This document shows positions 5,172-58,670 of a stretch of DNA of 64,000 bases, piece after piece; the first letter of the stretch is position 1, and every line of letters starts with the position of its first letter. A program made the position numbers and the translations under genes. Under the pieces are notes generated by a model. That model was given only the letters and a program-made list of their open reading frames with translations, was not told the DNA's origin and did no database searches. Origin of the DNA: Minisyncoccota bacterium (lineage in GTDB: Bacteria; Patescibacteriota; Minisyncoccia; Phycocordibacterales; UBA9973). The stretch lies in assembly GCA_041662525.1 (NCBI GenBank), contig JBAZSF010000002.1:3121-67120 (forward strand), given 5' to 3'.

Positions 5172-5196
5172 AGTCTAAAGCTATATCTAAAAAGAT

Positions 5197-38624: not shown

Positions 38625-38628
38625 GTGT

Positions 38629-38697: not shown

Positions 38698-38704
38698 TTA
38701 CTAT

Positions 38705-41285: not shown

Positions 41286-41436
41286 AGTTTCATATTATAC
41301 TCTTTATAAAACAGAAGGCATCTTTTAAAGCTTATTAACTCTGTTGATAAGCTGTGGATAAAAATTTTTTCTTAATAATTTTTTACGAGGAAGATTAAAT
41401 GAATTTGATTTATTCTTAATAATATTGTAAACTTTG
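41286..41436. promoter_or_regulatory. Candidate oriC: dnaA/rpmH divergent intergenic region with one perfect DnaA box (TTATCCACA) and an adjacent 1-mismatch box (TTATCAACA)
   Basis: 'ctgttgataagctgtggataaaaa' at ~41335-41360 read directly; classic rpmH-dnaA origin arrangement. Confidence 0.55.
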
Positions 41437-43560: not shown

Positions 43561-44952
43561 TTATTTTAAAGCGAGCTCCCAAAGAAAAGAATCTTTTTTA
43601 TTCACAAAAAATAAATAGTCCTCACTACTATCTAATGCAAGTTTGATACTATCGACGTCTTCCCCACCTAGAGCGACAGGGTCTGCAATCATTGTTGTAT
43701 TTCCAGTTTTAATATCTATTTTCCAAATTCGATCTCTAAAAAAAGTTTCTCCTTGATACCAGCTATCCGGATATTGGCCGTTAGGAATAGTGGTTGGTAC
43801 TCCACAATAAACAACATCATTAGTTTTATTCCAAACACATTTTTCCGCCAATGTTCTCACCCCCAACGTATTGGAAACTTTTGTATCTGTATGATAAATA
43901 TTAAGTGATAAGGTGTCATTGCTATAAAGAACCAGTTTCCCATTAGGACTAGTGAGAGTAGTAAGCCCATTTACAGCACCTAATATTTTGTGAAAATTAT
44001 AGTTTTTATTATTTGGGTCCATAGCGTACATATATCCAGGGATTCCAAATGAAGGTTTGGTGGTGAAAGTAATCATTTTATTATTTGGAAATAAGGACAA
44101 CCATTCAGTGAAAGGTGAATCAAAAACCTGAACTTTTTTATTATTTAATAAATTAAGTGTTGTACCAATTATGTTGTCTCCTAAATTATTTCCCAAATTA
44201 TTCCCACTGCTAAACATATAAAAAATACTATTAGAATCACTTGATAGACTTAAATCTTTTATGTTTTCCGGGAGGAACACCCCTTTTATTTCATTACTAC
44301 TCGTGGTGTCTGCGCCAAGAAATTCTTTTGGTAAAGTACCGACAAAAGTTATAATCGTTTTAGCATCTGATTTTAAATATCGCATAATTACAGAATTCCC
44401 TTTGTTTCCAAAAAATGCTTCATAAACCTTTGGTATTATTGTGGTAGAAAATTTCTTTTCTTCTATTTTGTCTACAAAGGTTTGATATATATTTCCTGTA
44501 GCTCTTTCTATATATCTTAAAGCTGGCATAAATTCTGTTGGAGGTGGAGTTGGCTTGGTTGTTTTTGTAGTAGTTGTTGTCTTTGGAGGAATTATTAAAC
44601 CTGTTGCTGGATCAATTTCTGGCGCTACCACAGGGATTTCTTTCAATCTTTCTTTGGAAAATACGGTAAAACCCGCGATAGGCATGCTCGAAACCTTTTT
44701 TAATTTTATGTTTGTCTCTGGTGTTGTAGAAATTTGTCCATCTCCAGAGATATCCACTGGGGGTGTGGTATTCGTGGGGGGCTTTGTTGAATTATTTCCA
44801 AATGGATTAAATTGTGAAATAAAATTTGTACCCGTGCTGTCTTCTCCTGGTGTATTTGTATTTGTTCCTGGATTGAAATAAAAATATCCAAATAATGTAC
44901 TTATTCCGATGACGATGATTATTATTAAAAGTATAAAATTTCTTTTTGACAT
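43561..44952 (-). CDS. Hypothetical secreted protein: N-terminal anchor, Pro/Thr-rich linker, beta-rich C-terminal domain
   Basis: 'ILLIIIIVIGISTLFGYFYF' then 'TTTTKTTKPTPPPTE' linker; first gene (3' end) of the T4SS-like minus-strand cluster. Confidence 0.5.
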   Translation of the reverse strand: MSKRNFILLIIIIVIGISTLFGYFYFNPGTNTNTPGEDSTGTNFISQFNPFGNNSTKPPTNTTPPVDISGDGQISTTPETNIKLKKVSSMPIAGFTVFSKERLKEIPVVAPEIDPATGLIIPPKTTTTTKTTKPTPPPTEFMPALRYIERATGNIYQTFVDKIEEKKFSTTIIPKVYEAFFGNKGNSVIMRYLKSDAKTIITFVGTLPKEFLGADTTSSNEIKGVFLPENIKDLSLSSDSNSIFYMFSSGNNLGNNLGDNIIGTTLNLLNNKKVQVFDSPFTEWLSLFPNNKMITFTTKPSFGIPGYMYAMDPNNKNYNFHKILGAVNGLTTLTSPNGKLVLYSNDTLSLNIYHTDTKVSNTLGVRTLAEKCVWNKTNDVVYCGVPTTIPNGQYPDSWYQGETFFRDRIWKIDIKTGNTTMIADPVALGGEDVDSIKLALDSSEDYLFFVNKKDSFLWELALK

Positions 44953-44955
44953 AAA

Positions 44956-45972
44956 TTAAAGTGTTTTAACGTATTTTATTCTTCCTGCATATGAACTTAC
45001 GGGTCTTACTGCGACTCCTCCTTGACCTTGTGCATCTATCATCTTACCATCGCCTATATACATCATCACATGGCCAGCCTTCCCTCCTTGTGGAGTCCAC
45101 CCAATTAAATCACCAGCCTTTAATGGCACACCATTTACTTTCGTTCCATCAGAACTGACACTTGTGGCAACAGTACTTCCTGAACCAAATATTCCAGTAG
45201 AAGTTCCTCCAGGATTTGATAATCCTGCACAGACATATACCTGACTTACATAAGAAGAACAATCTATCATTGCCTTGCCTCCCTTAACAGTATTTCTGTC
45301 TTGTTGACTATAGCTGGAATTTCCTACATAGGATTTAGCAATCCCAGAAAGAGCATTTGGTCCACCATCCCTAGGACAAATAATACCAACATTAGTTAAA
45401 TCATTTTTTATTGTTGCGGTATTTAGTTCTCTTGTACCTTCACCGCCTAACTCTACTGTAATCGTCACATCTTTCAAACTTGATAAACTAGAATCGAGCA
45501 ATTTAGGATTTATTGTATAAAGCAATGTCCAAGCACCGAGGGCTAAGATAAGACCAAAAATTGCATTTACAATCTTGCCTTTGCCGTCGCCTTTTTCCCC
45601 AGGAAGTTCGCTCGTCATATATTGAATACCACCCATGAAGATCATGACTACTGCCAAGACAGCACAGATACCAATGAAAATCTTGATCATTAAATTTAAA
45701 TACGCACTCAAATTATTTTCTTGTGTAGGGTCAAAAGTAGTCAGTGTTTCACCGTCAGGGTTGGGTAGTGGGGCTAAAAGATTGTAATTAGTTGTTGGTG
45801 TTGCTGATAAACTATTACATTGTGAGGCATCTCCTCCGTTATTTACAGCATCAATCACACATTGGTCATAAGCACTAATTGCTTCACTAAAATATATAGG
45901 AGCTAAAAAACCAAATAATATAAAAGCGAGATATGTTAAGGTTATTATTTTTTTAAATATATTTTTTTTCAT
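44956..45972 (-). CDS. Membrane-anchored NlpC/P60-family peptidoglycan hydrolase (TcpG/PrgK-like position)
   Basis: Two TM segments, C-terminal 'DCSSYVSQVY' (catalytic Cys) and 'GHVMMYIGDGKMIDA' (His). Confidence 0.65.
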   Translation of the reverse strand: MKKNIFKKIITLTYLAFILFGFLAPIYFSEAISAYDQCVIDAVNNGGDASQCNSLSATPTTNYNLLAPLPNPDGETLTTFDPTQENNLSAYLNLMIKIFIGICAVLAVVMIFMGGIQYMTSELPGEKGDGKGKIVNAIFGLILALGAWTLLYTINPKLLDSSLSSLKDVTITVELGGEGTRELNTATIKNDLTNVGIICPRDGGPNALSGIAKSYVGNSSYSQQDRNTVKGGKAMIDCSSYVSQVYVCAGLSNPGGTSTGIFGSGSTVATSVSSDGTKVNGVPLKAGDLIGWTPQGGKAGHVMMYIGDGKMIDAQGQGGVAVRPVSSYAGRIKYVKTL

Positions 45973-45979
45973 TTTTTAC

Positions 45980-46966
45980 TTAAAAGCTTACATTGATTTC
46001 TTTGGTGGTACTTTCAAAAATTTTATCTATATTATTAATGTCCAATCTTATTTTAGATGTTCCAGAAATTCCAGCTTGTGCTTTGAGCGGTAGTGTATTT
46101 TTTCTATAGATAGGTGCATTGACCGTTTCATTATTTATAAACCAATCCCAGGTAAGAGTCGGAATCCTGATGTCTTTCGGTGAGATAAAATATGGTGCTG
46201 CTTCGATGACTTCTTCACCTAATATTTTATACCCATTGGTTAATGCTTGTTCCCAAATTGTTCCTAAATTAGCATCATTTTTATAAAATACAATTTTTGG
46301 TTTTGTTATTTTTATATCTATACTTTCTGTTGAAGAATATTTTTGATCAGTGGTTCTCGCTGTTACTTCAATATTATTTGAATTCTCAAGATAGTCATTT
46401 ATGTAAGTAAAAGAATTCTTTCCATAACCAGAACCATCTTGGTTGTTAGTATAATCTTTTTTCCACACATAAGTCATGTTTTTAGGATTTATAAAATTGG
46501 AACCAGACTTTACCTCTGGCAGAGCGACAACTTTTACTAAACTATCAGGCGAAGGTAGGGCTTTGCCTTTGTAAAATGGAGGCACATAAGAATCCAAGGC
46601 CTGTGTGAGTAATACCATAGCTAAGGGCTTTATTATTATCTTTGTATTTGTTGCGCCATCAGGTAGAGAGATAGTGGCGATGACAGTTGTTTCCCCTCCT
46701 GCATTTGGAGCGTTAAGAGAAAAAGATTTTTTACCGATTCCAGATGAAATATTTTTACCATTTATAGACCAAGAAATTAAAACAATGTCTAGGTTGTTAA
46801 CATAACTTTTTAAAGTAATATCTACGTTTTCAAGAGGAGCTGGATTTTCTGGGGATACATTAACTAAAATATCAATCGAGGTAGCCCCTACCTTTAAAGG
46901 TAAAAAAGTTCCTAATACCGTAATTGTTATAATAAAAAATGAGAATATTAACTTCCAAAATTTCAT
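45980..46966 (-). CDS. Hypothetical secreted protein (signal peptide, beta-rich)
   Basis: 'MKFWKLIFSFFIITITVLGTFLPLKVGA' signal peptide; no domain call. Confidence 0.5.
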   Translation of the reverse strand: MKFWKLIFSFFIITITVLGTFLPLKVGATSIDILVNVSPENPAPLENVDITLKSYVNNLDIVLISWSINGKNISSGIGKKSFSLNAPNAGGETTVIATISLPDGATNTKIIIKPLAMVLLTQALDSYVPPFYKGKALPSPDSLVKVVALPEVKSGSNFINPKNMTYVWKKDYTNNQDGSGYGKNSFTYINDYLENSNNIEVTARTTDQKYSSTESIDIKITKPKIVFYKNDANLGTIWEQALTNGYKILGEEVIEAAPYFISPKDIRIPTLTWDWFINNETVNAPIYRKNTLPLKAQAGISGTSKIRLDINNIDKIFESTTKEINVSF

Positions 46967-47036
46967 ATATTCTAATTATACTCGGTAGTGAAACTTTTAT
47001 CAAAGACAAAAGCTTTACTGTCGGGATATATCATAC

Positions 47037-48890
47037 CTACTTCCCTGCTATCTCTCGTGCTTCTTTTTCTTCTCTAGCTTTTTTGTTTAATAATATTTGT
47101 GAAGGGTCAGAGGTAATGATCTGATCTTCGGTATAAGAAGAAACTATCTTTATAGCCACATGTTTTAGTCCTGCGAAGAATATACCCTCTCCTAACCCAG
47201 ATTCCAAAAGTAAATATTTTTCCTCATCAGTGAGATTGAAGGTCTTTTGCAAAATATCAATCGTGGTTGGTGATTGTTTTAAAAGAAGCTGAATAGAGGA
47301 ATTGGTAATAATCGGTACACCATAGGGAGACTTCATAAAGTCAGCTGCGTCTTGGGTGATAGTAGAAAGACCCAAGTAATATTTTCTACCTCTTTTAGCA
47401 ATGGAATACAAGAATGATGCGGTATCTTCGGATTTCATCATCCACCAAGCTTCATCTACTACGAGCAAGCGTTTCTTTAAATTCTTGCGAATCGCATTCC
47501 AAATGTAATGCATTATGATATACATAGCTACTGGTTTTAATTCGTCTTCCATGTCACGGACAGAAAATACCACAAATTTTTTATTAATGTCTACATTGGA
47601 TGGTCTATTGAGAAAGGTTGCCCAAGAACCTCTGGTATATTTTGCTAGTCTAGCAATAACTGAATCACTTCCTTCCATTCCAGAGAGCACCATTTCAAAA
47701 TCTGAAAGAAGAGGAGGCTCTATATTTGAAAAATCCGATTCTGGGGTGATATCTTTTATGGCATAAGTTTCTGAAATAGCTCTATCCACCATTGAATCTT
47801 CTTCTGGAGTGAGTCCTCCTAACATCAGTCTGAAAAGTCCCACTAGATTAATAATATTTGAACGCAAGACATCTTCGGCTGTTTCATCTTCACGAGGTAT
47901 TGGTAAATCAAAAGGATTTAAATGGTGATCTGAAGAAAGAGAGATATTAAAATATCGTCCACCGACAGCTTCAGTCAAGAATTCATATTCTCTTTCTGGA
48001 TCTATCACGATAACATCTATATCAAACATCAAGGATCGTAGGATTTCTAATTTTGTGGCATAAGATTTTCCAGAACCTGATTTAGCAAAGGTTACAGAAT
48101 TGTAATTTTCCAAGGAAAATCGGTCGAAGATAACGAGGGACGAGTTATGTCTATTAATACCATAGAGTATTCCTTTGTCGGAAGTAAGGTCAGAAGAAAT
48201 AAATGGGAAGACACTCGAAAGTGGCTCAGAGTTTAATTTTTGATGGATATTTAATAAGTCTGTTTCTATTGGAATAACACTTTTGAAACCTTCTTCTTGT
48301 TGGAAAAGCGCCGGCTTGATATATATAAGCTTTGATTCAAGCATCGATTTTATCTCATTTTCTATTTTAAATAACTCCATTTCGTTATCTGCATAAATCG
48401 TAATATAAATTCCCACATCAAACATTTTTTCTTGGGCTTGGATCAAATTATTACGAAGCCCTTCTAGGTCTTCGTAGGCAGTGTCCAGCATCGGATCACG
48501 TACCATTCCTTTTGATTCTCGGACATTTATTTGACTCTGAACCTCAGCCACTTTTTTCTGAAATTGTCGAAGCATCAGAGAAGTATCTATAGGGTGAACG
48601 AATATTGAAATATCAAAAATTTTATCCAAATTAATTATAGGAGAAAACCAATTGTCTGTTAAAAATCTCGGATAAGATATTATAAAAAAAGTACGGGCTA
48701 TTTTATTGCCTAAATTTATGGATTTTGGATCAATCTTTAAAGCTGATGGAGCAATTACGTCTTGGAGCTCTAAATTTGCAGATTCATAAATCTTTTCTGG
48801 TAAGACAGCCAAAACAGAAGCTCGCATTTCTCCAGCCCCAGTTTCTTTTTTTCCTCCTAATAATTTTTTTATGTTTTCTAAAATACTCAT
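47037..48890 (-). CDS. virB4: VirB4/TraC/TrbE-family conjugation (type IV secretion) ATPase, C-terminal ATPase portion
   Basis: Walker A 'AKSGSGKSY', 'LLVVDEAWWMM' (Walker B), 'GLSTITQDAADF'; AAA_10/DUF87 architecture. Confidence 0.85.
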   Translation of the reverse strand: MSILENIKKLLGGKKETGAGEMRASVLAVLPEKIYESANLELQDVIAPSALKIDPKSINLGNKIARTFFIISYPRFLTDNWFSPIINLDKIFDISIFVHPIDTSLMLRQFQKKVAEVQSQINVRESKGMVRDPMLDTAYEDLEGLRNNLIQAQEKMFDVGIYITIYADNEMELFKIENEIKSMLESKLIYIKPALFQQEEGFKSVIPIETDLLNIHQKLNSEPLSSVFPFISSDLTSDKGILYGINRHNSSLVIFDRFSLENYNSVTFAKSGSGKSYATKLEILRSLMFDIDVIVIDPEREYEFLTEAVGGRYFNISLSSDHHLNPFDLPIPREDETAEDVLRSNIINLVGLFRLMLGGLTPEEDSMVDRAISETYAIKDITPESDFSNIEPPLLSDFEMVLSGMEGSDSVIARLAKYTRGSWATFLNRPSNVDINKKFVVFSVRDMEDELKPVAMYIIMHYIWNAIRKNLKKRLLVVDEAWWMMKSEDTASFLYSIAKRGRKYYLGLSTITQDAADFMKSPYGVPIITNSSIQLLLKQSPTTIDILQKTFNLTDEEKYLLLESGLGEGIFFAGLKHVAIKIVSSYTEDQIITSDPSQILLNKKAREEKEAREIAGK

Positions 48891-48897
48891 ATTAATT

Positions 48898-48975
48898 CAG
48901 GCTTTAGCTTTTAGGCTCTATAGGCTCTAGCTTTTGAATTTGCTAATGCCTAATGCCTAGTTGCCTAGCGCCTAC
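48898..48975. repeat. Palindromic heptamer-array element (…TAGGCTC arm / GCTAATGCCTAATGCCTAGTTGCCTAGCGCCTA arm)
   Basis: Same family as 38629-38697. Confidence 0.5.
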
Positions 48976-49610
48976 TCTATTTTTATTTTCCCTTCTATCT
49001 CTCCTGGATTGAAAACTTTATAAAATACTTCGACTACTTCTTCGGTGCCGAGCTGGGCTGAATTTATACCACAACGAGAAAGGCCTTGCTGAATGACAGC
49101 TACCCTCTCTTCCAACTGGGACCTTTTTTCTTCGAAAGCTATTTGTTGGGCGGCTTTTATTTCTTCTTTATTTTTTCTTGAAAATATTCTATCTATTATT
49201 CCAGAATCTGATTTAAAGGTAGAGTTGGTGTAAGGCACTACTACAAAAAAGTTTTTGGTCATGATAGCCACGGAATCAGTAAAATTTTTAATAAATTCTA
49301 TATATTCTCTGGTTTGTAATTTTAAAAGGGGTTCATTTTGTACTTTAATTCTATTTTCTAAAAGTAGGAGATATGGCCTGATGTCTAGTCTTCTAGACTG
49401 TATTGATATTTGTACAGAAAAATCTAAAGTATTAAGAAAGTTTTGGAATTGCATTATGGTTGCTTGTTGTTCATCAGAAGACTTTAGAGATAGATTTACA
49501 GAATTAGCTAAAACAATAGCTCGTAATTCTTCGTTTTTTAACACGATTATTCCATCACGGACTTCCTTGATCGGGACAAACTCTTGAGTTGCTTTTGCAT
49601 TTAAGGCCAT
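48972..49610 (-). CDS. Probable N-terminal domain of a split VirB4 (CagE/TrbE/VirB N-domain-like)
   Basis: 'PIKEVRDGIIVLKNEELRAIVLANSVNLSLKSSDEQQATIMQFQNFLNTLDFSVQISIQSRRLD' resembles the start of VirB4/TraC proteins; directly upstream of the 617-aa ATPase part. Confidence 0.4.
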   Translation of the reverse strand: MALNAKATQEFVPIKEVRDGIIVLKNEELRAIVLANSVNLSLKSSDEQQATIMQFQNFLNTLDFSVQISIQSRRLDIRPYLLLLENRIKVQNEPLLKLQTREYIEFIKNFTDSVAIMTKNFFVVVPYTNSTFKSDSGIIDRIFSRKNKEEIKAAQQIAFEEKRSQLEERVAVIQQGLSRCGINSAQLGTEEVVEVFYKVFNPGEIEGKIKIE

Positions 49611-49614
49611 ATTT

Positions 49615-50058
49615 TTATTGTAAATTGTTTCCTTTTTGTTTACTTAAATCTAATACATCTAAACTCCAAGCTAGATCTCGCAATTTGCTTCCGTTTAATT
49701 CTAAATTATTTGAATGCATCATTTGAATTTTATTTTTCTTCCCGTCTGTATCAGCCATATTTGAAGTATTGCGGGCAGATACACTTTTTTTCCAAATATA
49801 AAGTTTATTTTGGGTAAAATATTTGAAACTAGATTCAATCATATTGATGAAAGGTTTGTTGTTTGGTTTGTAAAAAGTAAGAGCGAGTGAGAATCCGGCA
49901 ATAGCCAAAATTGGGATTAATCCTAAAATAAGACCTAGTAATTTATAAAGAATAAAACATAGACCTGCTCCACCTGCCAAGTAAACAAATTCCCTAAAAG
50001 TAAAAGGGCCAAATATTTTATCTTCAATGTCTAAAAATTGTGGAACTTTAAATTGCAT
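49615..50058 (-). CDS. PrgI/VirB3-like small membrane protein
   Basis: 'MQFKVPQFLDIEDKIFGPFTFREFVYLAGG' followed by two TM helices, the PrgI-family signature arrangement upstream of VirB4. Confidence 0.55.
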   Translation of the reverse strand: MQFKVPQFLDIEDKIFGPFTFREFVYLAGGAGLCFILYKLLGLILGLIPILAIAGFSLALTFYKPNNKPFINMIESSFKYFTQNKLYIWKKSVSARNTSNMADTDGKKNKIQMMHSNNLELNGSKLRDLAWSLDVLDLSKQKGNNLQ

Positions 50059-50209
50059 GGGGCAAGCAACGGCTTAATCTAATTATAACAACAAATGAGG
50101 AGCAAAAACAAATTTATTTGTTTATTGTCCGAATGCTGTTGTTATATGGTATTCCATATAATATAGATTTTTTCTAGCACCTAGTGTTTCTGATGTTTTT
50201 TGTTGGCAT

Positions 50210-50782
50210 TTATTCCGGAATTTCTCTGTATGGATCGATGGCTGGCTTGCTCACTATGATTTTTGGTGGAGTTGGAATGCTTGCTTTGGTAATATTTTCT
50301 ATAGAATGTTCAGTTTTTACTATTGGAACCTGAAAAGAACCAGATAGTTTTTGCGCCAAGATCGGAGGTGCTTTTTTTATTTCTTTTTTATTTTCATCTA
50401 TAATTTCAATCCCTGCAGAATTTAATATTTGCATATCACTTTCCCCTTCCGATGATTTTATCAAGCTTTCTTTTATTTTTACAAAAACTAGCTCATTCAT
50501 TTCTTTTACCAATTCATTTACTTCATCTCCAGAAAGATGCATTCTGTTTGCTAGTTCTTTTGGGTAATTTTCTGGACCAAGAAGCCCGCAAAGTAATAAT
50601 TCTGTTTCAGTCTCTAGGTCTCCTAATTGTTCAAAGGTATATCCTTTTGTTTTCCTCATTTCCAAGATAACTGCTTTGTAATCAACAGTGTTGATGGCGT
50701 TTCGGGTTTCTTTTGGCAATTCCGCTTTTGCTTTTTCAATTTTTATTTGTAATAAATCTGTTGTGTTTTCTATATTATCCAT
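50210..50782 (-). CDS. Hypothetical protein, paralog of adjacent 50802-51272 product
   Basis: Shared segment 'LL.GL..P…S..E…E.N..F..I.E.L' with neighbour. Confidence 0.45.
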   Translation of the reverse strand: MDNIENTTDLLQIKIEKAKAELPKETRNAINTVDYKAVILEMRKTKGYTFEQLGDLETETELLLCGLLGPENYPKELANRMHLSGDEVNELVKEMNELVFVKIKESLIKSSEGESDMQILNSAGIEIIDENKKEIKKAPPILAQKLSGSFQVPIVKTEHSIENITKASIPTPPKIIVSKPAIDPYREIPE

Positions 50783-50801
50783 ATATTTATTGTAGTATAT
50801 A

Positions 50802-51272
50802 TTATTTTTTTATAAAAAAGACTGGTAAGACTGTGTCTGGTGCTTCTTTATTGTTTACATTTTCTTTTTGTTCCAAGAAAGCAGAATAATCTCCACCAGA
50901 GAGAATAAAATTAAGATTTTGTTCAGCGGATGCATTTTTTACCTTATCGCTTGTTTTTATTTTTGCTAATATTTTTTCAGAAATTGGTGTAAATATTTTT
51001 TGATTTACTTCTTCCGCTATTTTTTCTGCTTCTGTCTTACTGGTGCCGATATTGTTCTCAATATTTTGCGCGAAGAAATTTGGATCTTCTAATCCCGCTA
51101 AAACAATCAGAATTTCTGCTTGAAAAAGATTTATTTCATCATCTAAGAGTAAATTTTTTTTACCAATTTCTTCCGCAATATTTTCCCAACCAAAAGTACT
51201 TATCACTTCTTGATTTTCTTTTGATAGCTTCGCTACTTCTTCTTTAATTGTTTGTTTTAATTTGTCAGTCAT
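50802..51272 (-). CDS. Hypothetical protein, paralog of adjacent 50210-50782 product
   Basis: See above; no TM, acidic. Confidence 0.45.
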   Translation of the reverse strand: MTDKLKQTIKEEVAKLSKENQEVISTFGWENIAEEIGKKNLLLDDEINLFQAEILIVLAGLEDPNFFAQNIENNIGTSKTEAEKIAEEVNQKIFTPISEKILAKIKTSDKVKNASAEQNLNFILSGGDYSAFLEQKENVNNKEAPDTVLPVFFIKK

Positions 51273-51278
51273 ATAACT

Positions 51279-53510
51279 TTATGTTTTTGTTCCACTGTCT
51301 AACTTAACCTCTGTCATTATTTTATGGGCAGCTTCTTTATTAAAACCACGATCATTTCCAAAGCTAAATTTTACTATTCTTTGAGCATAAGCCTGCCTCC
51401 TTCTTACATTTTCGGTTTTAATTGTTTGAATTTGTTCTTTCTGTAATTTTTCTAGAGCATCAATATTCTTTCCAGTTCCTTTCCTCTCGTAAGCTTTTCC
51501 AGCACTATCTAGAGTCATATAACTTTCTCCTTTCATGAAAGCAGTTTTGTCCTGTTTTGCATTTTTTAATGCATTTGTTTTTGTTTGTAATTCTAATTGT
51601 GTAATTGTTCCAGCTTTAAAGTCTCTTTCTGCGTCAACCGCTTCTTGCCTCTTCTTTTCAATTGTTTTATCAAGTGTGCTAATTTCTTGTGCATTTGTGC
51701 TCAACAAAGCCTGCAGATCCATTTCAGTTTTATTCAATGCTTGTTTTAATGATTCATCCTCTCTAACTTCAAGTCCTTTTGCTCTCTTTATATTTTTTTC
51801 TACTTTTTCTTTTCGTGTTTGTGCGATTCCGCCTTTTTGTGCTTCACCGAGGTTCATTCCTGTAGCCCCTGATAAGTTTTTGCCGGCAATTTTTACTCCC
51901 CGTACATCAAAACTACTCTTTTGGGCAAAAGCACCAACGCTTGTTAATCCACTAGCGACTTTGTTCATACCCAGCCTATTTCCCCATTCAGACTCTCCAA
52001 ATTTATTTGCTCTACTTGCTAATTTATTAGCAAGAGTTCCCCCACCTCCACCTAGAACACTTCGTCCAGCAATAGCTGTTGCTCCCAACCCTGCTCCCAG
52101 AGCTAATCCGCCTGCAATCTTTGCGCCTTTCATTACCATTTCACCTATCGCGCCAGAACCCTTTTTAGCATAGTCAGTTGCTTTTAGAAGAAGAACTAAA
52201 ATTAATAATGCAGGAAGAATAATTCCCAACAACGATTCTATCATTCGAGTGCTCGATGCTGTTTGAAGGCCTTTAAATATGTCTGCATGAATGAGCATAA
52301 ATATGAAATATAAAAAGAACATAAAAATCGGCGCCATAAAAGAAACTTTGATCAGGCGTGTAAACCAAGCATCCCATCCCAAAGAGTCAATTTTTTTAAA
52401 AGAAGGAACTACTGAAGACATAAAAGCAAAAGGAGAAAAAATAATTAAAACAAAAAATTCTATAAGTCGTCCTAAAAAGCTTAAACCAACTATAATAAGA
52501 CAGTAAGCAGCAAAAAGCATAAGTACTCCAGCGATAAGAAGCATACCAATTAATATTCCAGGTGCTACTTTGGCAGCTGGGGGTACAGGAACTCCGTTTA
52601 TTGGTTCTTGTTGCTTAGCATTATCTAAATATTCCTGACTTACTAATTTTGTAGGGTCAAAAGCGTTTACTAATCCCCCCGCAACATCTTTTTCTCTATT
52701 CCCCGTGCTTGTATACGGCCTGTCATTTCCTTGTGCATCTTTTGTGTTAACGCTTACTTTATTATAAAAAATCAACGCTAAAATATTAGAAGAATCAATA
52801 ATAACTTGAGTGAAAAACATAGAAAAGTTTATAAGTAGTGCCATTATTACGACACTTCCTATCATTTTTTTAACCTCAGACCCTCCCATTCCTAAAATAA
52901 CTTTAATAGCTATATAAAGCAATATGAGTATAAAGAAAATATTAGAAAGATCGCGCACTATCCCCCAAGCTTCTCTTACAAAAGGGTTGGAAAGAAATGA
53001 ACTATATAAAGTTATATTTACCAAGACATTAAAAAAATATGCGGATACATATAGCAACCAACTAGGAATAACATAAAAAATACCATAAAAAAGTTGGATA
53101 AAACATCCAGGCCAAAAAGTACCTGAAGCAAGAGGGTTAACAGAACATTTATTGTCAGTAATTTCTTTTTCAAAAGCTGATTGATTTGGATTAGGTGTTG
53201 CGGGTGCTGCCGGGTCTGCTGGTGTGTCGTCTATCGTCGGCTGTCCTGCTGTTATAACCCACTGATTGTTAAATGTATCCACACAAGGTGCATTAGTTGG
53301 CGGAGTAGTATCACAAGCTTCTTGAGGATCAGATGCAGAGGCATGCACCATCACCATCGGTCCAAAAATACCGATCAAGACAAAAAGCAAAAATCCCAAT
53401 ACTAAAATTTTACTTTTCTTGCCCCGTAGTGAGCTTTGCTCTACTACTGGAGTAGTATAAAATTTATTTTTTCCAGTAACAGAATTTTCTTTTGTTAAAT
53501 CTTTTGACAT
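51279..53510 (-). CDS. VirB6/TrbL-like polytopic membrane protein with Gly-rich and coiled-coil C-terminal extension
   Basis: N-terminal signal, Cys-rich extracellular 'CDTTPPTNAPC', ≥6 TM helices (e.g. 'IFFILILLYIAIKVILG', 'MLLIAGVLMLFAAYCLIIVGLSFL'), 'GGLALGAGLGATAIAG', then coiled coil. Confidence 0.5.
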   Translation of the reverse strand: MSKDLTKENSVTGKNKFYTTPVVEQSSLRGKKSKILVLGFLLFVLIGIFGPMVMVHASASDPQEACDTTPPTNAPCVDTFNNQWVITAGQPTIDDTPADPAAPATPNPNQSAFEKEITDNKCSVNPLASGTFWPGCFIQLFYGIFYVIPSWLLYVSAYFFNVLVNITLYSSFLSNPFVREAWGIVRDLSNIFFILILLYIAIKVILGMGGSEVKKMIGSVVIMALLINFSMFFTQVIIDSSNILALIFYNKVSVNTKDAQGNDRPYTSTGNREKDVAGGLVNAFDPTKLVSQEYLDNAKQQEPINGVPVPPAAKVAPGILIGMLLIAGVLMLFAAYCLIIVGLSFLGRLIEFFVLIIFSPFAFMSSVVPSFKKIDSLGWDAWFTRLIKVSFMAPIFMFFLYFIFMLIHADIFKGLQTASSTRMIESLLGIILPALLILVLLLKATDYAKKGSGAIGEMVMKGAKIAGGLALGAGLGATAIAGRSVLGGGGGTLANKLASRANKFGESEWGNRLGMNKVASGLTSVGAFAQKSSFDVRGVKIAGKNLSGATGMNLGEAQKGGIAQTRKEKVEKNIKRAKGLEVREDESLKQALNKTEMDLQALLSTNAQEISTLDKTIEKKRQEAVDAERDFKAGTITQLELQTKTNALKNAKQDKTAFMKGESYMTLDSAGKAYERKGTGKNIDALEKLQKEQIQTIKTENVRRRQAYAQRIVKFSFGNDRGFNKEAAHKIMTEVKLDSGTKT

Positions 53511-53545
53511 TTTTTATAAACTTATTTTGGTATTTATATTTTCTT

Positions 53546-55663
53546 CTATTGTCCAGATAATCCTAGATTAAATACAGAATTCAATAAGTTGCTTTCGTTT
53601 TTTATCATTATCCATATTTTTGGTTTCAAATTATCCTTGTTGAATGTTACTGTCTCTCCTATACCAGCATTATCCATATTTGCGAATGAGACAGGAGCAG
53701 ATATTGGCCAACTAGCATTCCCTCCCCATACATTGAGTCTTTCATATTGATTTTTTAGCTCCGCATACCACTGATCGATATTGTTGGGATCTGTGGTCAC
53801 TACCATATTAGTATTGGCTGCTTGGTTGATTTGAGCCATGCCCATAGATATAAATGATTTAGCTGCTGAGGTGTCAGCCACAAAATACACCGCTTGGCCT
53901 GGATATAATCTAACACCAAACTCAGGTTTACCGAGCGTAAGATTATTGTAATTGTGATTGGTAGGGTTTTCAGACTGAGATATTGGAATACCTACAGTAA
54001 TAGGTACAATGACATTTTTGGCGGGACTAGAAGAGTCTTTTATGACAACAGAAGTAACACCATCTGTTACGCCAGACACGATCAAGTTTGTACCAGAGAG
54101 GATGGCTATCGCAGTCGATTCATTTAGACCTGTTTGAATAGCATAAGGTTCTACTCCACCAGACATAGAGGCGATGACTTGACCACCAGCAGTAGTGAAA
54201 ATATTTGCTGGAGTAACCATGATGGCTCCAATAGCACTTACTGTAATAGTGATAGTGACATTCTGAGTTGGGTTAGATGAATCTTGGACTACGATTGAAG
54301 TTGTTCCAGGTGCAATTCCAGTGATTGTGAGTTTATTTCCAGAGGAACTAGAAGTATTAATTATAGCAGTAGCTATAGAAAATGTGTCTGTTTGAAATTG
54401 AATATCATAATTTCCTGAACCGCCTGATATCGTTGTGCTGGTTGTTTGTCCGACATAAACCGAAACATTATTTGGAATATTCAAAGATCCGATTGTGGGA
54501 GTACTACCATCTAAGGTAGTGCCATTATAGCTCCAATTGTCCACTGGAGGTGTGCCACTAACTGCACCTGAGAGAGCATTCAAACCTTTATCTAAAAAGT
54601 GATTTAAAAGGGCATCAAAAATTGAAGCCAAACTATTACCTATCGCCCCATCAAGTGCGGTTTGTAGGAATGGAGTACCAACGGCGGTAAATATTTGGTT
54701 TGCTGCCACTGAACCAGGAGTAGTGTTTTTTAAACCACCTGGACAAGCATTTGTCAGTGCCCATGTAGCTTTTGCCCCTGCTTCATTTGCATAATAATCA
54801 TGAACATAGTCATCGTATGCTTGTTGGTCTTCTGGATTTGTTGGTAAGTTGTTACCTTCAGAATCAAGACCCCCTTCTCTTACTACTGGTGGATTAAAGG
54901 CGATAGGATTTTGAAAGCTCGGTCTATTAAATTCATTTATGCCATTATTATATTTAGGATTAGACGGACAAGTTTGAGGAGAGAGAAAGCCCATGCCTTG
55001 TTGGAGAAGGGATTGGGTTTTTTGCGCGGCATTTTGAGTGGTATTTTGAAGCCCTCTAGCAAGTACGTCAGTCATTTGCATTTGGGATCCTAGATAATTA
55101 TTTTGGGGGTATTGTGTATTTATTAAAAATCCATTCCATCCACCGGCATTAAAATTATTTCTGTAATTTTCAGCTTGCGCTGAATTCATTACTTTGCTCA
55201 AAGTGTATCCCATATTATCGGAAAGTTTGCTTTTGTAACTATTTATCGCACTTAAAGCAAATTGTTTTCCGAAAGGATATAGTAAGCTGTCGTAGCCGAA
55301 TGTATTTACTACATTTTTTAGCTCTGATTTTGCTATATCTCTAAAGAAAGAGTCAGGATTTTCTAAGAAAAGTGGTGATCCATGAAAATCAGAATTTATC
55401 CAATTTATAGTGGCTTGAGTCATTTTTGCCAAGATTCGTTTGGCGGCCATTTTAAGTAATTGATTGCCTATGTATTCTGCCCAATTTTTAATATCAAAAC
55501 TTTCGCTTAAGAAATCCATAACTGGTACCCCTGGTCCTGGTGCTGGGGCTACAGCTTCAGTTTGTTTTGGCCTAGAAAATAAAACAGCAGGAGTGATAAT
55601 TGAAATGATTAAAAGAATGGAGATAAATTTTATTGTTTTATTTTTAGTTGAGTTTTTTTTCAT
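53546..55663 (-). CDS. Large secreted protein with two bacterial Ig-like (Big_2-type) domains
   Basis: Signal/anchor 'FISILLIISIITPAVLF'; repeats '…NKLTITGIAPGTTSIVVQDSSNPTQNVTITITV' and '…TNLIVSGVTDGVTSVVIKDSSSPAKNVIVPITV'. Confidence 0.55.
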   Translation of the reverse strand: MKKNSTKNKTIKFISILLIISIITPAVLFSRPKQTEAVAPAPGPGVPVMDFLSESFDIKNWAEYIGNQLLKMAAKRILAKMTQATINWINSDFHGSPLFLENPDSFFRDIAKSELKNVVNTFGYDSLLYPFGKQFALSAINSYKSKLSDNMGYTLSKVMNSAQAENYRNNFNAGGWNGFLINTQYPQNNYLGSQMQMTDVLARGLQNTTQNAAQKTQSLLQQGMGFLSPQTCPSNPKYNNGINEFNRPSFQNPIAFNPPVVREGGLDSEGNNLPTNPEDQQAYDDYVHDYYANEAGAKATWALTNACPGGLKNTTPGSVAANQIFTAVGTPFLQTALDGAIGNSLASIFDALLNHFLDKGLNALSGAVSGTPPVDNWSYNGTTLDGSTPTIGSLNIPNNVSVYVGQTTSTTISGGSGNYDIQFQTDTFSIATAIINTSSSSGNKLTITGIAPGTTSIVVQDSSNPTQNVTITITVSAIGAIMVTPANIFTTAGGQVIASMSGGVEPYAIQTGLNESTAIAILSGTNLIVSGVTDGVTSVVIKDSSSPAKNVIVPITVGIPISQSENPTNHNYNNLTLGKPEFGVRLYPGQAVYFVADTSAAKSFISMGMAQINQAANTNMVVTTDPNNIDQWYAELKNQYERLNVWGGNASWPISAPVSFANMDNAGIGETVTFNKDNLKPKIWIMIKNESNLLNSVFNLGLSGQ

Positions 55664-55692
55664 TTCCTTATATTTATTATATAATTTTTAAC

Positions 55693-56616
55693 TTAGTTGT
55701 TCAATTTTTGTTTGATGGTATTTATAAGGTTGTTGGCTGAAGATGTTAAAGTCGCAGCGTCATTTCCATACTGGACGATGGCGTTTATTGCCACTATCGG
55801 ATCACCATCATAAAGCTTTATATCACTAATATTTTCCACCATTTTTTCAGAATTATTTATTAATGCTAAATGAAAAAGTGAGAGAGATTGTGGAACTTGT
55901 ATTTTTAATGACTCACTGATGATTTGATTTGTTTTATTAATGATCAAATCAAGTTCTGATAATTTTTCAATATTTGTTTCATCTGCCACAAATTCTTGCA
56001 AGATAGTCGATACTCCTTTTTTGATATGTTGTTTTAAATAAATAGCATTTAAAGCGTCGCTATATTTTTGGATGGCTTGTTTGGTGTCACTGTTTATGAT
56101 TTTAATATCAGAAATCGTATAGATTTTTCTCTGGGTAGAATTTTCTATTTTTTCTGAGAGAGAATTACTCAAGGCGTCTATGGTTTCTTGGTTCACTTGA
56201 CCATTTTGGTTTAGAGCGGCCACTGTGGTAAAAAGTTCTCTGGAGAATTTTTCCGTTTGAGTTAAATTCTCTGTTCCTGCGGAAGCAAGGCCTCCGCTTG
56301 TCGTTCCCGTGTCTTTTCCTTGTTCAGATCTTAATTTACTTAATGCTGAGCTGTCAGGTGTGCCTGGGTTGGTTTCTTTTTTAGTTGGGTCAAGTCCATA
56401 TAAACCTTCTTGCCAGTCCGGTATTCCATCACCATCAGTATCTTTGTTCACTAAATCTTCTATGGTTGCATTTTCATCATAAGATAAACCATTTGGATTT
56501 ATTTCTTGTTTAGATATTTCAGTATTTTTAAAGATAGATGTCTTTTGAAAAAGAAAAAGTACCACTAAAAAAAGCACCGCTAAGATGATTAGAATTATCC
56601 TTTTGTGTTTTACCAA
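55693..56616 (-). CDS. Membrane-anchored hypothetical protein with thrombospondin type-3-like Ca-binding motif
   Basis: N-terminal TM 'IILIILAVLFLVVLFLF'; 'DTDGDGIPDWQEG' DxDxDG motif. Confidence 0.5.
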   Translation of the reverse strand: MVKHKRIILIILAVLFLVVLFLFQKTSIFKNTEISKQEINPNGLSYDENATIEDLVNKDTDGDGIPDWQEGLYGLDPTKKETNPGTPDSSALSKLRSEQGKDTGTTSGGLASAGTENLTQTEKFSRELFTTVAALNQNGQVNQETIDALSNSLSEKIENSTQRKIYTISDIKIINSDTKQAIQKYSDALNAIYLKQHIKKGVSTILQEFVADETNIEKLSELDLIINKTNQIISESLKIQVPQSLSLFHLALINNSEKMVENISDIKLYDGDPIVAINAIVQYGNDAATLTSSANNLINTIKQKLNN

Positions 56617-56706
56617 AAATATTTTAATAACAAGTTAATTGTAACATCTCTTTTAAAAGGAAACTAGGTTTTTGGGGATATCTAGACACTAGATTATGTT
56701 ATAATT

Positions 56707-57708
56707 ATGATTATGAGAACGTTTTATTTTTATTTATTTATTATTTTTACTCTCTTTTCTTTTTCACAGACTATTTTTGCAGTTTCTACTGATTGTAGTA
56801 TTACTCTTAAATTAAGAGTAGGTTCTAAGGGTACTGAAGTAGAATGTCTTCAAAGAAAAATAGGAATAGTGGCAGATGGTAGCTTTGGATCCTTGACCAA
56901 GGTTGCAATTTTAACTTTCCAATCAAATAACGGCTTGGTAACTGATGGCATCGTTGGTCCCCTTACCCGTGCAACCTTAAATGCTGTGAAGGTAGGCAAT
57001 ATTTACCCAGAAGGCTGTATTTCAAATGCAGGATTTAGTCCAAAAACTGGTATTAAGTGTGATAATATCGTAAAAAGTGTTGTAAATAAAGGATTAAACC
57101 CTACCTCTGCCCCTATCTCTAATTCTACTCCTACACCTACTCCCAAAGTTGCTTCTAATAGTATTAATATGGATCAGTTTATTAAAACAGTAGTGGAAGT
57201 GAGCAGAAAATCTGGTTCCAGTGAAGAAGATATTAAAATTATAGCGGATACTCTCAGGGAAACAATTATAAATAGTGATGTTGATTATAATAAAAAATTT
57301 GAAGAATTACTTACAAATGAAAGTAAATTAAGCGCTAATTTAAAAACCAAGCCACTTTCATCTTTGTTTGACAAAGTTCTTACCAAAACCTTTTCCTTTT
57401 TAGGAATTAAACCTCCTATTGCGCATGCAGCAGTTGGTATACCATTTGGTGGTGCTTTACTTTTTCCTTTTTTCTGCGCATACAATGCTAGCTGGATGAT
57501 CACTATTTCTCCTTTACCACCGACTTTTGTAAGCCTTCTCACTTATTATCCAGGAACTCAAGGATTTGCAAGCTATAATATACCTTTTACTAGTTGGTTA
57601 CTTGGGGATTATGTAACACCTGGTGTTTGTATCATACCTGCTCATCATCCTATCGTTATTCCTACCACCGGCACCATTACTCCAATGGTTGGTTCTTCCC
57701 CGCTTTAG
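56707..57708 (+). CDS. Secreted peptidoglycan-binding-domain (PG_binding_1) protein with hydrophobic C-terminus
   Basis: Signal peptide; 'GSKGTEVECLQRKIGIVADGSFGSLTKVAILTFQSNNGLVTDGIVGPLTRATL' matches PGBD1 repeat. Confidence 0.6.
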   Translation: MIMRTFYFYLFIIFTLFSFSQTIFAVSTDCSITLKLRVGSKGTEVECLQRKIGIVADGSFGSLTKVAILTFQSNNGLVTDGIVGPLTRATLNAVKVGNIYPEGCISNAGFSPKTGIKCDNIVKSVVNKGLNPTSAPISNSTPTPTPKVASNSINMDQFIKTVVEVSRKSGSSEEDIKIIADTLRETIINSDVDYNKKFEELLTNESKLSANLKTKPLSSLFDKVLTKTFSFLGIKPPIAHAAVGIPFGGALLFPFFCAYNASWMITISPLPPTFVSLLTYYPGTQGFASYNIPFTSWLLGDYVTPGVCIIPAHHPIVIPTTGTITPMVGSSPL

Positions 57709-58630: not shown

Positions 58631-58637
58631 TTTTTTT

Positions 58638-58670
58638 GCTAATGCCTAGAGCCTAAAGCCTAGTGCCTAT
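58638..58670. repeat. Heptamer array GCTAATGCCTAGAGCCTAAAGCCTAGTGCCTAT (half-copy of palindromic heptamer element)
   Basis: Between rsmA and pcrA. Confidence 0.45.

Follow-up and report, generated by a model that had tools for sequence, protein, structure and literature searches.

A predicted Gram-positive-type type IV secretion gene block at an origin-proximal chromosomal site in a Paceibacteria-type genome

What kind of machine is encoded by a type IV secretion system (T4SS) gene block that has neither a relaxase nor a coupling protein in view, and does it move DNA between cells, import it, or connect the cell to a host? We addressed this question for a window of 64,000 nucleotides, meaning the whole stretch of DNA analyzed here, from a Paceibacteria/Nomurabacteria-type genome. 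A sequence-only reading had described a Gram-positive-type T4SS-like cluster in it, and the VirB4, TrsD-like and PrgI matches given below bear this description out: as judged from sequence, the block is a Gram-positive-type (MPF_FATA-like) T4SS module. We are confident, short of certainty, that it represents the chromosomal, origin-proximal T4SS of Patescibacteria, a vertically inherited derivative of monoderm MPF_FATA conjugation machinery that serves host contact and is not a mobile element. The same system has been published as the Patescibacteria T4SS (Wang 2023; Quinonero-Coronel 2025), and the find is thus real but not new, as the system was already described between 2023 and 2025. The suggestion that the composition of the system might be novel is not supported, because the TrsD/PrgI/VirB6/VirB2/VirB1 repertoire of the Patescibacteria clade, its missing relaxase and, in Paceibacteria, its dnaA/dnaN/rnpA/ksgA neighborhood were published in 2025 (PMC12102498). 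The Saccharibacteria counterpart, which is essential for epibiotic growth, likewise has no recognizable coupling protein or relaxase (Wang 2023, PMC10633639), and Patescibacteria T4SSs are covered by a review (PMC12857230). Details that may be new are the fusion of pilin and hydrolase, the VirB5-like motif seen among relatives of a 705-aa surface protein, a candidate VirB6 call at the level of fold and the hyper-conservation of VirB4.

The block comprises 11 minus-strand genes (43561-56616). An ORF check recovered all ORFs at exactly the coordinates first recorded; the earlier gene list lacked the 307-aa first gene (55693-56616). The core parts are VirB4, a TrsD-like piece, PrgI/VirB3, an extended VirB6-like candidate and a fusion of a VirB2-like pilin to an NlpC/P60 domain. 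Six further proteins are lineage specific, four of them membrane-anchored or secreted surface proteins and two acidic paralogues; none has a named counterpart in PMC12102498 or PMC10633639. The block and its divergent neighbor are as follows.

43561..44952, minus strand: last gene of the block, 463 aa, predicted beta-propeller on a stalk (AF2, Foldseek)
44956..45972, minus strand: pilin-NlpC/P60 fusion, 338 aa (Pfam, NCBIfam, hydropathy scan)
45980..46966, minus strand: 328-aa protein with N-terminal signal/anchor (ORF, hydropathy scan)
47037..48890, minus strand: VirB4 ATPase, 617 aa, CD1110/MPF_FATA type (Pfam, NCBIfam and PDB matches)
48972..49610, minus strand: TrsD-like protein, 212 aa, the extreme N-terminal domain of a full-length VirB4 as its own gene (NCBIfam)
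49615..50058, minus strand: PrgI/VirB3-family small membrane protein, 147 aa (Pfam PrgI, PF12666)
50210..50782, minus strand: acidic protein, 190 aa, pI 5.0, no predicted transmembrane (TM) helix (hydropathy scan)
50802..51272, minus strand: acidic protein, 156 aa, pI 4.7, no predicted TM helix (hydropathy scan)
51279..53510, minus strand: extended VirB6-like candidate, polytopic membrane protein, 743 aa
53546..55663, minus strand: surface protein, 705 aa, signal/anchor helix at residues 11-29 (Pfam, hydropathy)
55693..56616, minus strand: first gene of the block, 307 aa, N-terminal membrane anchor at residues 7-25 (ORF, hydropathy scan)
56707..57708, plus strand: divergent neighbor, PG_binding_1 protein, 333 aa (Pfam PG_binding_1 at 7e-9)

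The motor and its ancestry

The VirB4 call is supported by Pfam (P-loop_TraG at 4e-25, plus AAA_10 and DUF87), by a match to PDB entry 4ag5 at 2e-39 and by the NCBIfam CD1110 family, the only one whose cut-off the window protein exceeds (362.7 bits against a cut-off of 325, with model positions 182-733 covered). Its Walker A (269-276) and Walker B (475-482) motifs are invariant in all 78 relatives compared. There are more than 8,000 homologues, and the best 120 are all at least 89% identical to it, with every named one among them from Paceibacterota, Nomurabacteria or Patescibacteria. By similarity, then, the nearest relatives of this predicted MPF_FATA-type VirB4 are those of Patescibacteria. 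The best matches outside the CPR are CD1110-family proteins of Firmicutes and Actinobacteria (28-35% identity), which share with the block an adjacent TrsD-like ORF, further ORFs resembling PrgI and a pilin, and a wall hydrolase. These similarities point to a Gram-positive ancestry of the block, in monoderm MPF_FATA conjugation machinery.

Both proposed partners of VirB4 held up. The 212-aa protein, suspected to be a separately encoded VirB4 N-domain, matches CD1110 at positions 2-167 of 752 (4e-5), complementing the stretch covered by the VirB4 ORF, as well as VirB4_plasma at positions 102-238 of 894 (2e-11), TrsD at positions 15-199 of 201 (1.4e-5) and TIGR00929 at positions 4-177 (all NCBIfam). 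The same split between TrsD and VirB4 genes occurs in Firmicutes replicons. The 147-aa protein scores 33.7 bits against PrgI (PF12666; gathering threshold, 27), confirming its PrgI/VirB3-like assignment. Each of the two is present in all 42 related loci with full flanks (at 70% and 57% identity, respectively), and both genes are contiguous with virB4.

These features agree with the Patescibacteria-clade T4SS (PMC12102498; Southlakia epibionticum SEML1_0006-0019, PMC10633639), which shares VirB4 of MPF_FATA ancestry, TrsD-like and PrgI/VirB3 genes beside virB4, a VirB6-like protein, a VirB2-like pilin domain and a wall hydrolase near virB4, the lack of a nearby relaxase or coupling protein and, in Paceibacteria, the chromosomal site beside dnaA, dnaN, rnpA and ksgA. 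The core is also collinear with the MPF_FATA operons of Firmicutes, namely trs of pGO1/pSK41 and tra of pIP501, a comparison that on the side of the block rests partly on the TrsD model match. Those operons run from a VirB3-like gene (TrsC/TraC) through TrsD/TraD, VirB4 (TrsE/TraE) and a membrane protein (TrsF/TraF) to a wall hydrolase (TrsG/TraG). Unlike the block, they are plasmid borne, come with a relaxase, oriT and a coupling protein (TrsK/TraJ), have no VirB2-like pilin and encode a hydrolase with SLT and CHAP domains. A further comparison is with the CD1110-family clusters of Firmicutes (CTn2-type), such as that on Pontibacillus replicon NZ_CP062975, which ranked second among VirB4 matches in a plasmid collection (34% identity, highest bit score). 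It encodes TrsD-like, PrgI-like and Mbov_0395-type pilin-like ORFs, a hypothetical protein of 779 aa and a wall endopeptidase, and like the block it lacks a relaxase or coupling protein within 12 kb. Its PrgI-position ORF resembles the 147-aa protein (E=5e-5), whereas its pilin-like protein is free-standing (151 aa), its hydrolase is an M23 metallopeptidase, it does not lie at the origin, and no similarity could be detected between its 779-aa protein and the VirB6-like family of the 743-aa protein.

Chromosomal position, conservation and mobility

The block has jag on one side and ksgA on the other, with dnaA about 2 kb away. We retrieved 80 GTDB loci and used the 42 with full flanks for synteny and presence counts; across these the order dnaN-dnaA-rnpA-yidC-jag-[cluster]-ksgA-uvrD is kept with few local exceptions. 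The GC content of the block (0.33-0.38) is the same as that of its flanks, no att-like repeats flank it, the only tRNA in the window is 20 kb away, and among the ORFs of the 64-kb window scanned with Pfam there was no VirD4/coupling protein, relaxase, VirB11 or integrase. The fixed site, the flank-like GC and the lack of integrase, att repeats and an adjacent tRNA speak against a classical mobile conjugative element. The sequence-only reading had argued for the same conclusion from the components missing in view, and the flank and synteny comparisons it proposed thus came out in its favor. It had also drawn in pilB, a link that is unsupported: that gene is 13 kb away with housekeeping genes between, and the two only co-occur in the window.

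The missing coupling protein says little about the genome as a whole, since VirD4-like proteins are encoded in about 96% of Patescibacteria genomes, at sites far from virB4 (PMC12102498). That distant location, together with the homology of the parts to monoderm conjugation proteins, would suit a remnant or domesticated ICE that still transfers DNA by means of a relaxase and coupling protein encoded elsewhere. We consider this highly improbable: only a few of the 42 genomes depart from the jag-ksgA site, the window shows no integrase, att site or GC deviation, and relaxases occur in only 103 of 3,035 Patescibacteria genomes (PMC12102498).

Rates of evolution weigh against it as well. Median pairwise identity is 80.3% for VirB4, a value somewhat inflated since the loci were picked by VirB4 similarity, 66.2% for DnaA, 62% for TrsD, 59% for DnaN and 23-36% for the envelope proteins. 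VirB4 thus evolves more slowly than DnaA, which would be unlikely for a mobile element, while the envelope proteins evolve fast.

Membrane platform, pilin-hydrolase fusion and surface proteins

The profiles by which the sequence-only reading proposed to check itself gave a divided answer: PrgI and AAA_10 matched as described above, but the TrbL/VirB6 model (PF04610) found nothing in the 743-aa protein at E<=10 and in none of 54 family members at E<=0.01. About 8 TM helices form the core of this protein (residues 110-465), a disordered, Gly-rich linker comes next, and the C-terminal domain (560-735) is mostly helical in a confident model (pLDDT about 96); at the level of fold the protein is a VirB6-like candidate. 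Three block proteins have NCBIfam links, all below curated cut-offs, to the transfer module of Mycoplasma ICEs (CDS15-CDS16-CDS17; Mbov_0395/0396/0397): the pilin-like domain to Mbov_0395, this 8-TM protein to MMCAP2_0566/Mbov_0396, and the TrsD piece to the VirB4 N terminus of Mbov_0397. CDS16 has been described as probably being the Mycoplasma ICE's VirB6-like part (PMC12857230), and going by locus-tag order MMCAP2_0566/Mbov_0396 is probably the CDS16 protein. Unlike the block, the Mycoplasma module belongs to an ICE that is mobile and carries a DDE transposase and VirD4; its VirB4 is encoded as one 894-aa protein, and it has no wall hydrolase because its host is wall-less.

Next to this gene lie the two small acidic proteins, presumably cytoplasmic, whose suspected paralogy is borne out by hhalign on disjoint families (probability 99.6%, E=1.2e-23). 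The 156-aa protein was detected in 13 and the 190-aa protein in 27 of the 42 loci; a role of the former as adaptor, chaperone or substrate is speculative.

The membrane-anchored NlpC/P60 hydrolase (45.8 bits) was correctly recognized from sequence; what had been overlooked is that its anchor is a VirB2-like pilin domain. The 338-aa protein consists of a signal peptide, a two-helix pilin domain (about residues 86-153; TM helices at 94-112 and 134-152) and NlpC/P60 (233-327). Its pilin part matches T4SS_pilin (PF18895) over residues 96-153 with 37.7 bits (threshold, 26.6); it also matches the NCBIfam model Mbov_0395 pilin-like (1.7e-6) and, weakly, Pfam TrbC. With the catalytic residues Cys238 and His301 in place, the enzyme domain is a predicted peptidoglycan endopeptidase. 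The window contains no other pilin-like domain, so that a VirB2-like pilin stands near virB4 (two genes downstream) in fusion form only. Saccharibacteria have arrays of 2-11 small free-standing VirB2 pilins, whereas the lineage of the block has a single pilin-like domain inside a multidomain protein: in 72 loci we counted 76 pilin-domain ORFs, and all those with a listed length are longer multidomain proteins (250-784 aa), with differing partners: NlpC/P60 in the block, SLT in one relative, and further domains in others. The enzyme domain is predicted to lie outside the cell, and on a reading that we think quite unlikely, though conceivable, a filament or its base would therefore carry enzymes that cut the peptidoglycan of the host or of the cell itself.

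Could the block encode a filament for attachment that translocates nothing? The VirB2-like domain is conserved across all loci, no coupling protein is nearby, and in other T4SSs VirB4 is the pilus-assembly ATPase. We nevertheless regard a pilus-only adhesion organelle as very unlikely. Fusion of the sole pilin-like domain to a large enzyme domain is atypical for a polymerizing pilin, and the extended VirB6-like protein with its large cytoplasmic-type C-terminal domain, together with the two presumably cytoplasmic paralogues, suggests substrate handling.

The 705-aa protein had been called a Big_2 surface protein, a label that is not borne out: PF02368 matches neither it nor any of 27 relatives. 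Its N-terminal domain (about 37-360) is conserved; two repeats follow (about 395-560), and they give the protein its sole Pfam match, a weak one to T2SS-T3SS_pil_N (5e-4). It occurs in 33 of the 42 loci at about 31% identity. Its relatives begin with a VirB5/TraI-like motif, and DUF4141 matches two of them N-terminally, below threshold. We think it quite unlikely, though conceivable, that this protein is a VirB5-like tip adhesin completing an unusual VirB2/VirB5/VirB6-type stalk-and-pilus module around the hydrolase-fused pilin.

The remaining surface proteins are conserved to different degrees. The 328-aa protein, which occupies the TraF/TrsF position downstream of VirB4, is present in all 42 loci (37% identity) and has no match in Pfam, NCBIfam or PDB. 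The 463-aa protein, likewise in all 42 (41% identity), has an N-terminal TM helix (3-26) and a disordered stalk rich in Thr and Pro (29-80), and its AF2 model (pLDDT 82.8, pTM 0.77) shows a 7-bladed beta-propeller at residues 84-463, for which Foldseek returned generic WD40-type propellers only (E about 1e-10, about 10% identity). The modeled propeller is presumably extracellular, and some homologues have PG_binding_1 in their N-terminal part. The 307-aa protein (27 of 42 loci, about 30% identity) carries a calcium-binding repeat of the TSP3 type, DTDGDGIPDWQE, at about residues 59-82, followed by a C-terminal domain; Pfam TSP3_bac matches weakly (0.038), and the family profile matches 7c7r, a biofilm surface protein, in its TSP3-like part (0.0013). 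No VirB8-like component (bitopic, NTF2-like) was identified in the block, sequence profiles of the 328-aa and 307-aa candidates included. The divergently transcribed gene does encode a PG_binding_1 domain as first read, but since it occupies that position in only 2 of the 42 loci it probably falls outside the conserved component set.

A proposed role in host contact

We propose that the complex of VirB4, TrsD and PrgI would dock onto the VirB6 platform in the single membrane. The pilin-hydrolase would insert with its enzyme domain outward, opening the cell wall locally, and may either polymerize into or anchor a short pilus or conduit, with the fast-evolving surface proteins as the parts that span the wall and contact the host. 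Such a machine most likely serves contact-dependent host interaction, that is, attachment and macromolecule transfer, rather than plasmid or ICE conjugation. The interaction with host or partner cells put forward from sequence accords with the Patescibacteria T4SS literature (PMC12102498, PMC10633639, PMC12857230).

The other role put forward, DNA uptake, fares less well as an essential function. In Southlakia (Saccharibacteria), deletion of comEC abolished competence and left viability unaffected, while T4SS genes are essential (PMC12857230); the essential role is thus something other than classical transformation. These genetics also weigh on the idea of a conduit, like Helicobacter ComB or archaeal Ced, that pulls host DNA or RNA into a nucleotide-auxotrophic cell. 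In its favor, neither a relaxase nor a coupling protein is in view, Patescibacteria lack nucleotide synthesis, a 2026 preprint describes a cultivated member feeding on host RNA, with tubular structures that are perhaps T4SS pili, and T4SS loci of the ABY1 class sit with comF, recG and radA (PMC12102498). However, the block yielded no DNA-binding or nuclease component, and MPF_FATA systems are not known to work in the import direction; we consider nucleic-acid import unlikely.

No class of Patescibacteria is larger or less cultivated than the Paceibacteria, and their T4SS is the best candidate for a host-connecting machine, its Saccharibacteria counterpart being essential for growth. The per-gene map given here refines the known picture and does not change it. 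It offers a candidate fold-level VirB6 assignment for a protein called hypothetical in public records, and it separates the extremely constrained parts of the T4SS (VirB4, TrsD and PrgI) from the fast-evolving ones. The conservation of VirB4 above that of DnaA makes it a useful marker or target. The beta-propeller, the 705-aa and 328-aa proteins, the VirB6-like protein and the pilin-hydrolase fusion evolve fast and are therefore likely determinants of host specificity.

Genomic setting of the T4SS-like block

All of the ORFs listed in the sequence-only reading were recovered, with matching coordinates, in our ORF check of the window, a low-GC (~0.34) stretch of bacterial chromosome. The 11-gene T4SS block is surrounded by housekeeping genes.

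Genes flanking the T4SS block and selected features elsewhere in the window (window coordinates, strand or orientation, identity)
3495-7097, MacB/HlyD-type ABC exporter
29044-30741, plus, single pilB-type ATPase
38705-39802, minus, dnaN
39948-41285, minus, dnaA
41587-43447, plus, rnpA, yidC and jag/KhpB
43561-56616, minus, T4SS block
56707-57708, divergent from the block, PG_binding_1 gene
Beyond the PG_binding_1 gene, ksgA/rsmA, UvrD/PcrA helicase and an unannotated 785-aa ORF

The block occupies a fixed site in the chromosome and is no mobile element. We retrieved 80 related loci from one-genome-per-species GTDB contigs, 42 of which have full 10-kb flanks, and among these 42 the order dnaN-dnaA-rnpA-yidC-jag-[463, pilin protein, 328, VirB4, TrsD, PrgI, (190), (156), VirB6-like, 705, 307]-ksgA-uvrD (block genes in square brackets, numbers being protein lengths in aa) is kept from dnaN to uvrD with few local exceptions. 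Seven of the 11 block genes were detected in every one of the 42 loci. The GC content of the block equals that of its flanks, its ends showed no att-like direct repeats when searched, and the nearest tRNA, the sole tRNA of the window and the sole match in an Rfam scan of it, lies 20 kb away. No integrase was found in the window; nor, in line with the sequence-only reading, was any relaxase, coupling protein or VirB11 detected there. The divergent PG_binding_1 gene that was counted with the cluster is indeed present, but just 2 of the 42 loci have it there, and it is therefore a neighbour rather than a component.

Gaps between block genes are short (3-151 bp), and promoter and terminator consensus scans gave chance-level matches only, so operon boundaries are drawn from the short gaps alone. 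The dnaA-rnpA spacer contains one perfect DnaA box (41353-41361); GC skew, however, does not change sign at this candidate origin. If the spacer were the origin, the whole T4SS operon, ksgA and uvrD would point towards it and run head-on to replication.

Elsewhere, the window encodes DNA repair and replication proteins (uvrA, uvrB, uvrC, polA, ruvB, ruvC and fpg), TyrRS, a class A PBP, plsY and proline-biosynthesis enzymes. The pilB-type ATPase (T2SSE match, 1e-114) is solitary and divergent from polA, with an unannotated 223-aa ORF followed by ruvB and ruvC downstream; no pilC, pilM or pilin genes adjoin it, and it lies 13 kb from the T4SS block with housekeeping genes between. A 598-aa ORF (9-1805, plus) pairs a DUF11 domain with a thrombospondin type 1 (TSP_1) repeat, an unusual combination for a surface protein, and is followed by the ABC exporter. 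For a 356-aa ORF between uvrA and uvrB (19817-20887, minus), neither Pfam nor PDB sequences gave a match. The 785-aa ORF upstream of uvrD (60952-63309, minus) lacks Pfam and NCBIfam matches as well as TM segments; it may encode a strain-specific protein, since it was undetected in the 80 related loci, few of which reach that far past uvrD.

Motor, VirB6-like and pilin components

The VirB4 call (47037-48890) is borne out by matches to Pfam P-loop_TraG, AAA_10 and DUF87. The 617-aa protein also matches the C-terminal domain of VirB4 in a solved structure (4ag5, 2e-39) and TrwK, and it scores 362.7 bits (cut-off 325) against the NCBIfam model "VirB4-like conjugal transfer ATPase, CD1110 family." Its Walker A (269-276) and Walker B (475-482) motifs are unchanged across 78 relatives. 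More than 8000 VirB4 homologues were scored; each of the top 120 has an identity of 89% or more, and the named members of those 120 are all Paceibacterota, Nomurabacteria or Patescibacteria, which places the window in a Paceibacteria (Parcubacteria/CPR) genome. An identical VirB4 is on record for a Candidatus Paceibacterota bacterium MAG. The PrgI/VirB3-like call (49615-50058) likewise holds, above the Pfam gathering threshold. A separately encoded VirB4 N-domain had been proposed at 48972-49610, upstream of virB4, and this 212-aa ORF does match the N-terminal regions of several complete VirB4 models, as well as a TrsD/TraD model. Neither BLASTP nor hhalign linked it to the N-terminal region of the VirB4 encoded next to it, and the kinship is visible only against full-length VirB4 models. 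Because the 212-aa ORF covers positions 2-167 and VirB4 positions 182-733 of the 752-position CD1110 model, the two are complementary pieces, resembling the TrsD/TrsE arrangement.

Tandem TAGGCNN heptads in 3-4 copies occur in short intergenic spacers of the window (48891-48971, 58631-58670, 38625-38704 and 16245-16270), one array sitting between the TrsD-like gene and virB4. They are often followed by inverted GCCTA copies, with which they form long imperfect hairpins, and RNA fold z-scores are -6.2 at 38622-38706 and -2.9 at 48888-48978. The motif was counted 12 times where chance alone would give 0.63, and arrays are present in 8 of the 80 related loci (L003, L005, L007, L013, L025, L028, L037 and L052), mostly at the borders of T4SS genes. 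They may represent a REP-like element specific to the lineage, or may act within the operon as an attenuator or stabiliser.

For the 743-aa protein we keep the VirB6/TrbL-like call with moderate confidence, as that of an extended VirB6-like protein. The Pfam TrbL/VirB6 model matches neither this protein nor any of the 53 relatives tested. The protein has a weak NCBIfam match (9.6e-6) to a family of conjugal-transfer membrane proteins of mycoplasma ICEs that, judging by locus-tag order, is probably the CDS16 protein, the likely VirB6 equivalent of the mycoplasma ICE according to a review (PMC12857230). The membrane core of its AlphaFold2 model has a pLDDT of 85-93, and DotA and TrwI ranked first in Foldseek, without significance. 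A PDB sequence profile of the family returned low-complexity TolA matches only, which we rejected. Public records annotate the family as hypothetical, save a few automatic mislabels, and a model-based, fold-level VirB6 assignment is a lead that may add to what has been published.

For the 338-aa protein, read from sequence as a membrane-anchored NlpC/P60 hydrolase, the NlpC/P60 domain is confirmed, with catalytic Cys238 and His301 retained; the anchor turns out to be a VirB2-like pilin domain, which the earlier call did not include (PF18895, 37.7 bits versus a threshold of 26.6, with weaker matches to TrbC and Mbov_0395 pilin-like models). A predicted signal peptide and two TM helices would put the P60 domain on the extracellular side. 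We saw no free-standing pilin-like ORF in 72 loci of this lineage, which contain 76 pilin-domain ORFs, all those with a listed length being 250-784 aa. NlpC/P60 is the pilin partner in 15 of the 76 ORFs and in 7 of the 42 full loci by a strict search, and in one related locus (L013) the partner is an SLT_2 transglycosylase; no known partner domain was recognised in the remaining pilin-domain ORFs. Pilin fusions are not mentioned in the main text of PMC12102498 and are a lead that may likewise extend what has been described.

Envelope proteins and the selection pattern

In the 463-aa protein, a TM helix is followed by a disordered stalk rich in Thr and Pro and then by a seven-bladed beta-propeller that was modelled with confidence. 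The propeller has generic structural neighbours only, and the PDB sequence profile of the family gave no informative match. A subset of homologues (~515-565 aa; P0277, P0278, P0285, P0289, P0290 and others) carries PG_binding_1 in the N-terminal part, a domain fusion through which the gene at the end of the block is linked to the cell wall. The 307-aa protein combines an N-terminal anchor with a TSP3-type calcium-binding repeat, and its family profile weakly matches (0.0013) a biofilm surface protein (7c7r) across its TSP3-like repeats. The Big_2 label previously given to the 705-aa protein had to be dropped, as it has no such domain and only a weak T2SS-T3SS_pil_N match; its family has no NCBIfam match and a weak PDB profile match to cellulose-synthase BcsC (E=0.035). 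Relatives of this protein carry a motif directly after the signal peptide, with DUF4141 matches below threshold, that we take to resemble the N-terminus of VirB5/TrbJ/TraI-type proteins; it, too, is a lead that may be new relative to the literature. The 328-aa protein has no match in Pfam, NCBIfam or the PDB sequence profile. The 190-aa and 156-aa proteins are paralogues, as proposed, and both are acidic and without TM segments.

Median pairwise amino-acid identity among 37 genomes sharing all core genes, picked by VirB4 similarity, which favours VirB4
VirB4, 80.3%
DnaA, 66.2%
TrsD-like, 62.3%
DnaN, 58.6%
PrgI, 51.1%
YidC, 50.2%
463-aa (beta-propeller), 35.6%
328-aa, 32.9%
Pilin protein, 29.1%
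VirB6-like, 26.9%
307-aa, 25.0%
705-aa, 22.5%

These medians indicate that the cytoplasmic motor is more constrained than the replication initiator and that envelope-exposed proteins evolve fast. The lead of VirB4 is unlikely to be purely an artefact, because the gap is large and very many near-identical VirB4 clusters exist; such hyper-conservation may exceed what has been published and serves as a further lead.

Published relatives and proposed function

The block is very probably the Patescibacteria T4SS already published in 2023-2025, and its detection here a correct rediscovery. The main interpretation of the sequence-only reading, a Gram-positive-type T4SS-like cluster, was right; its suggestion of novel composition fails because of those publications. 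In the Saccharibacterium Southlakia epibionticum, Tn-seq by Wang et al. 2023 (PMC10633639) demonstrated that epibiotic growth requires the T4SS cluster SEML1_0006-0019; this system is akin to Gram-positive conjugative T4SSs, its pilins are essential, and neither a coupling protein nor a relaxase can be recognised in it. Across 3035 Patescibacteria genomes, Quinonero-Coronel et al. 2025 (PMC12102498) described a monophyletic VirB4 clade nested in MPF_FATA. They located TrsD, PrgI/VirB3, VirB6, VirB2-like pilins and VirB1-like hydrolases close to virB4, detected a relaxase in just 103 of the genomes and reported VirD4-like genes that are common yet far from virB4. The Paceibacteria locus adjoins dnaA, dnaN, rnpA and ksgA (PMC12102498), and a 2025 review sums up these systems (PMC12857230).

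The best VirB4 matches in a plasmid collection were from Firmicutes and Actinobacteria (28-35% identity), many annotated as CD1110 family. An 898-kb Pontibacillus replicon encodes, in order, an Mbov_0395-type pilin-like protein, a hypothetical protein, a 779-aa hypothetical protein, PrgI-like, TrsD-like and VirB4 proteins and an M23 wall endopeptidase, with no relaxase or coupling protein within 12 kb. We considered the 779-aa protein as a relative of the 743-aa family and found no detectable similarity. The closest Firmicutes clusters share with the block the division of VirB4 into a TrsD-like piece and VirB4, and the Pontibacillus cluster supports a Gram-positive ancestry. Since this Firmicutes relative has both the split VirB4 and a pilin-like gene, neither is peculiar to Patescibacteria. 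That the block is a conjugative remnant is very improbable.

Alongside the observed parts list, homologies, fixed position and selection pattern, we infer a working mechanism. VirB4, the TrsD-like piece and PrgI would form an ATPase complex at the membrane, with the extended VirB6-like protein as platform or channel. The pilin-hydrolase protein would open the wall locally and polymerise or anchor an outer structure, the anchored beta-propeller, TSP3, 705-aa and 328-aa proteins would supply the wall-spanning and host-contact parts, and the two acidic paralogues could be adaptors or substrates. A machine for nucleic-acid import is a live alternative of rather low probability; ComEC-dependent transformation is not the essential role in Southlakia, where comEC deletion left cells viable (PMC12857230). 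A 2026 preprint describes a cultivated parasite that feeds on host RNA and has tubular structures, possibly T4SS pili. We favour, as a reasonably probable reading and over conjugation, a contact-dependent host-interaction machine that would serve attachment and macromolecule transfer.
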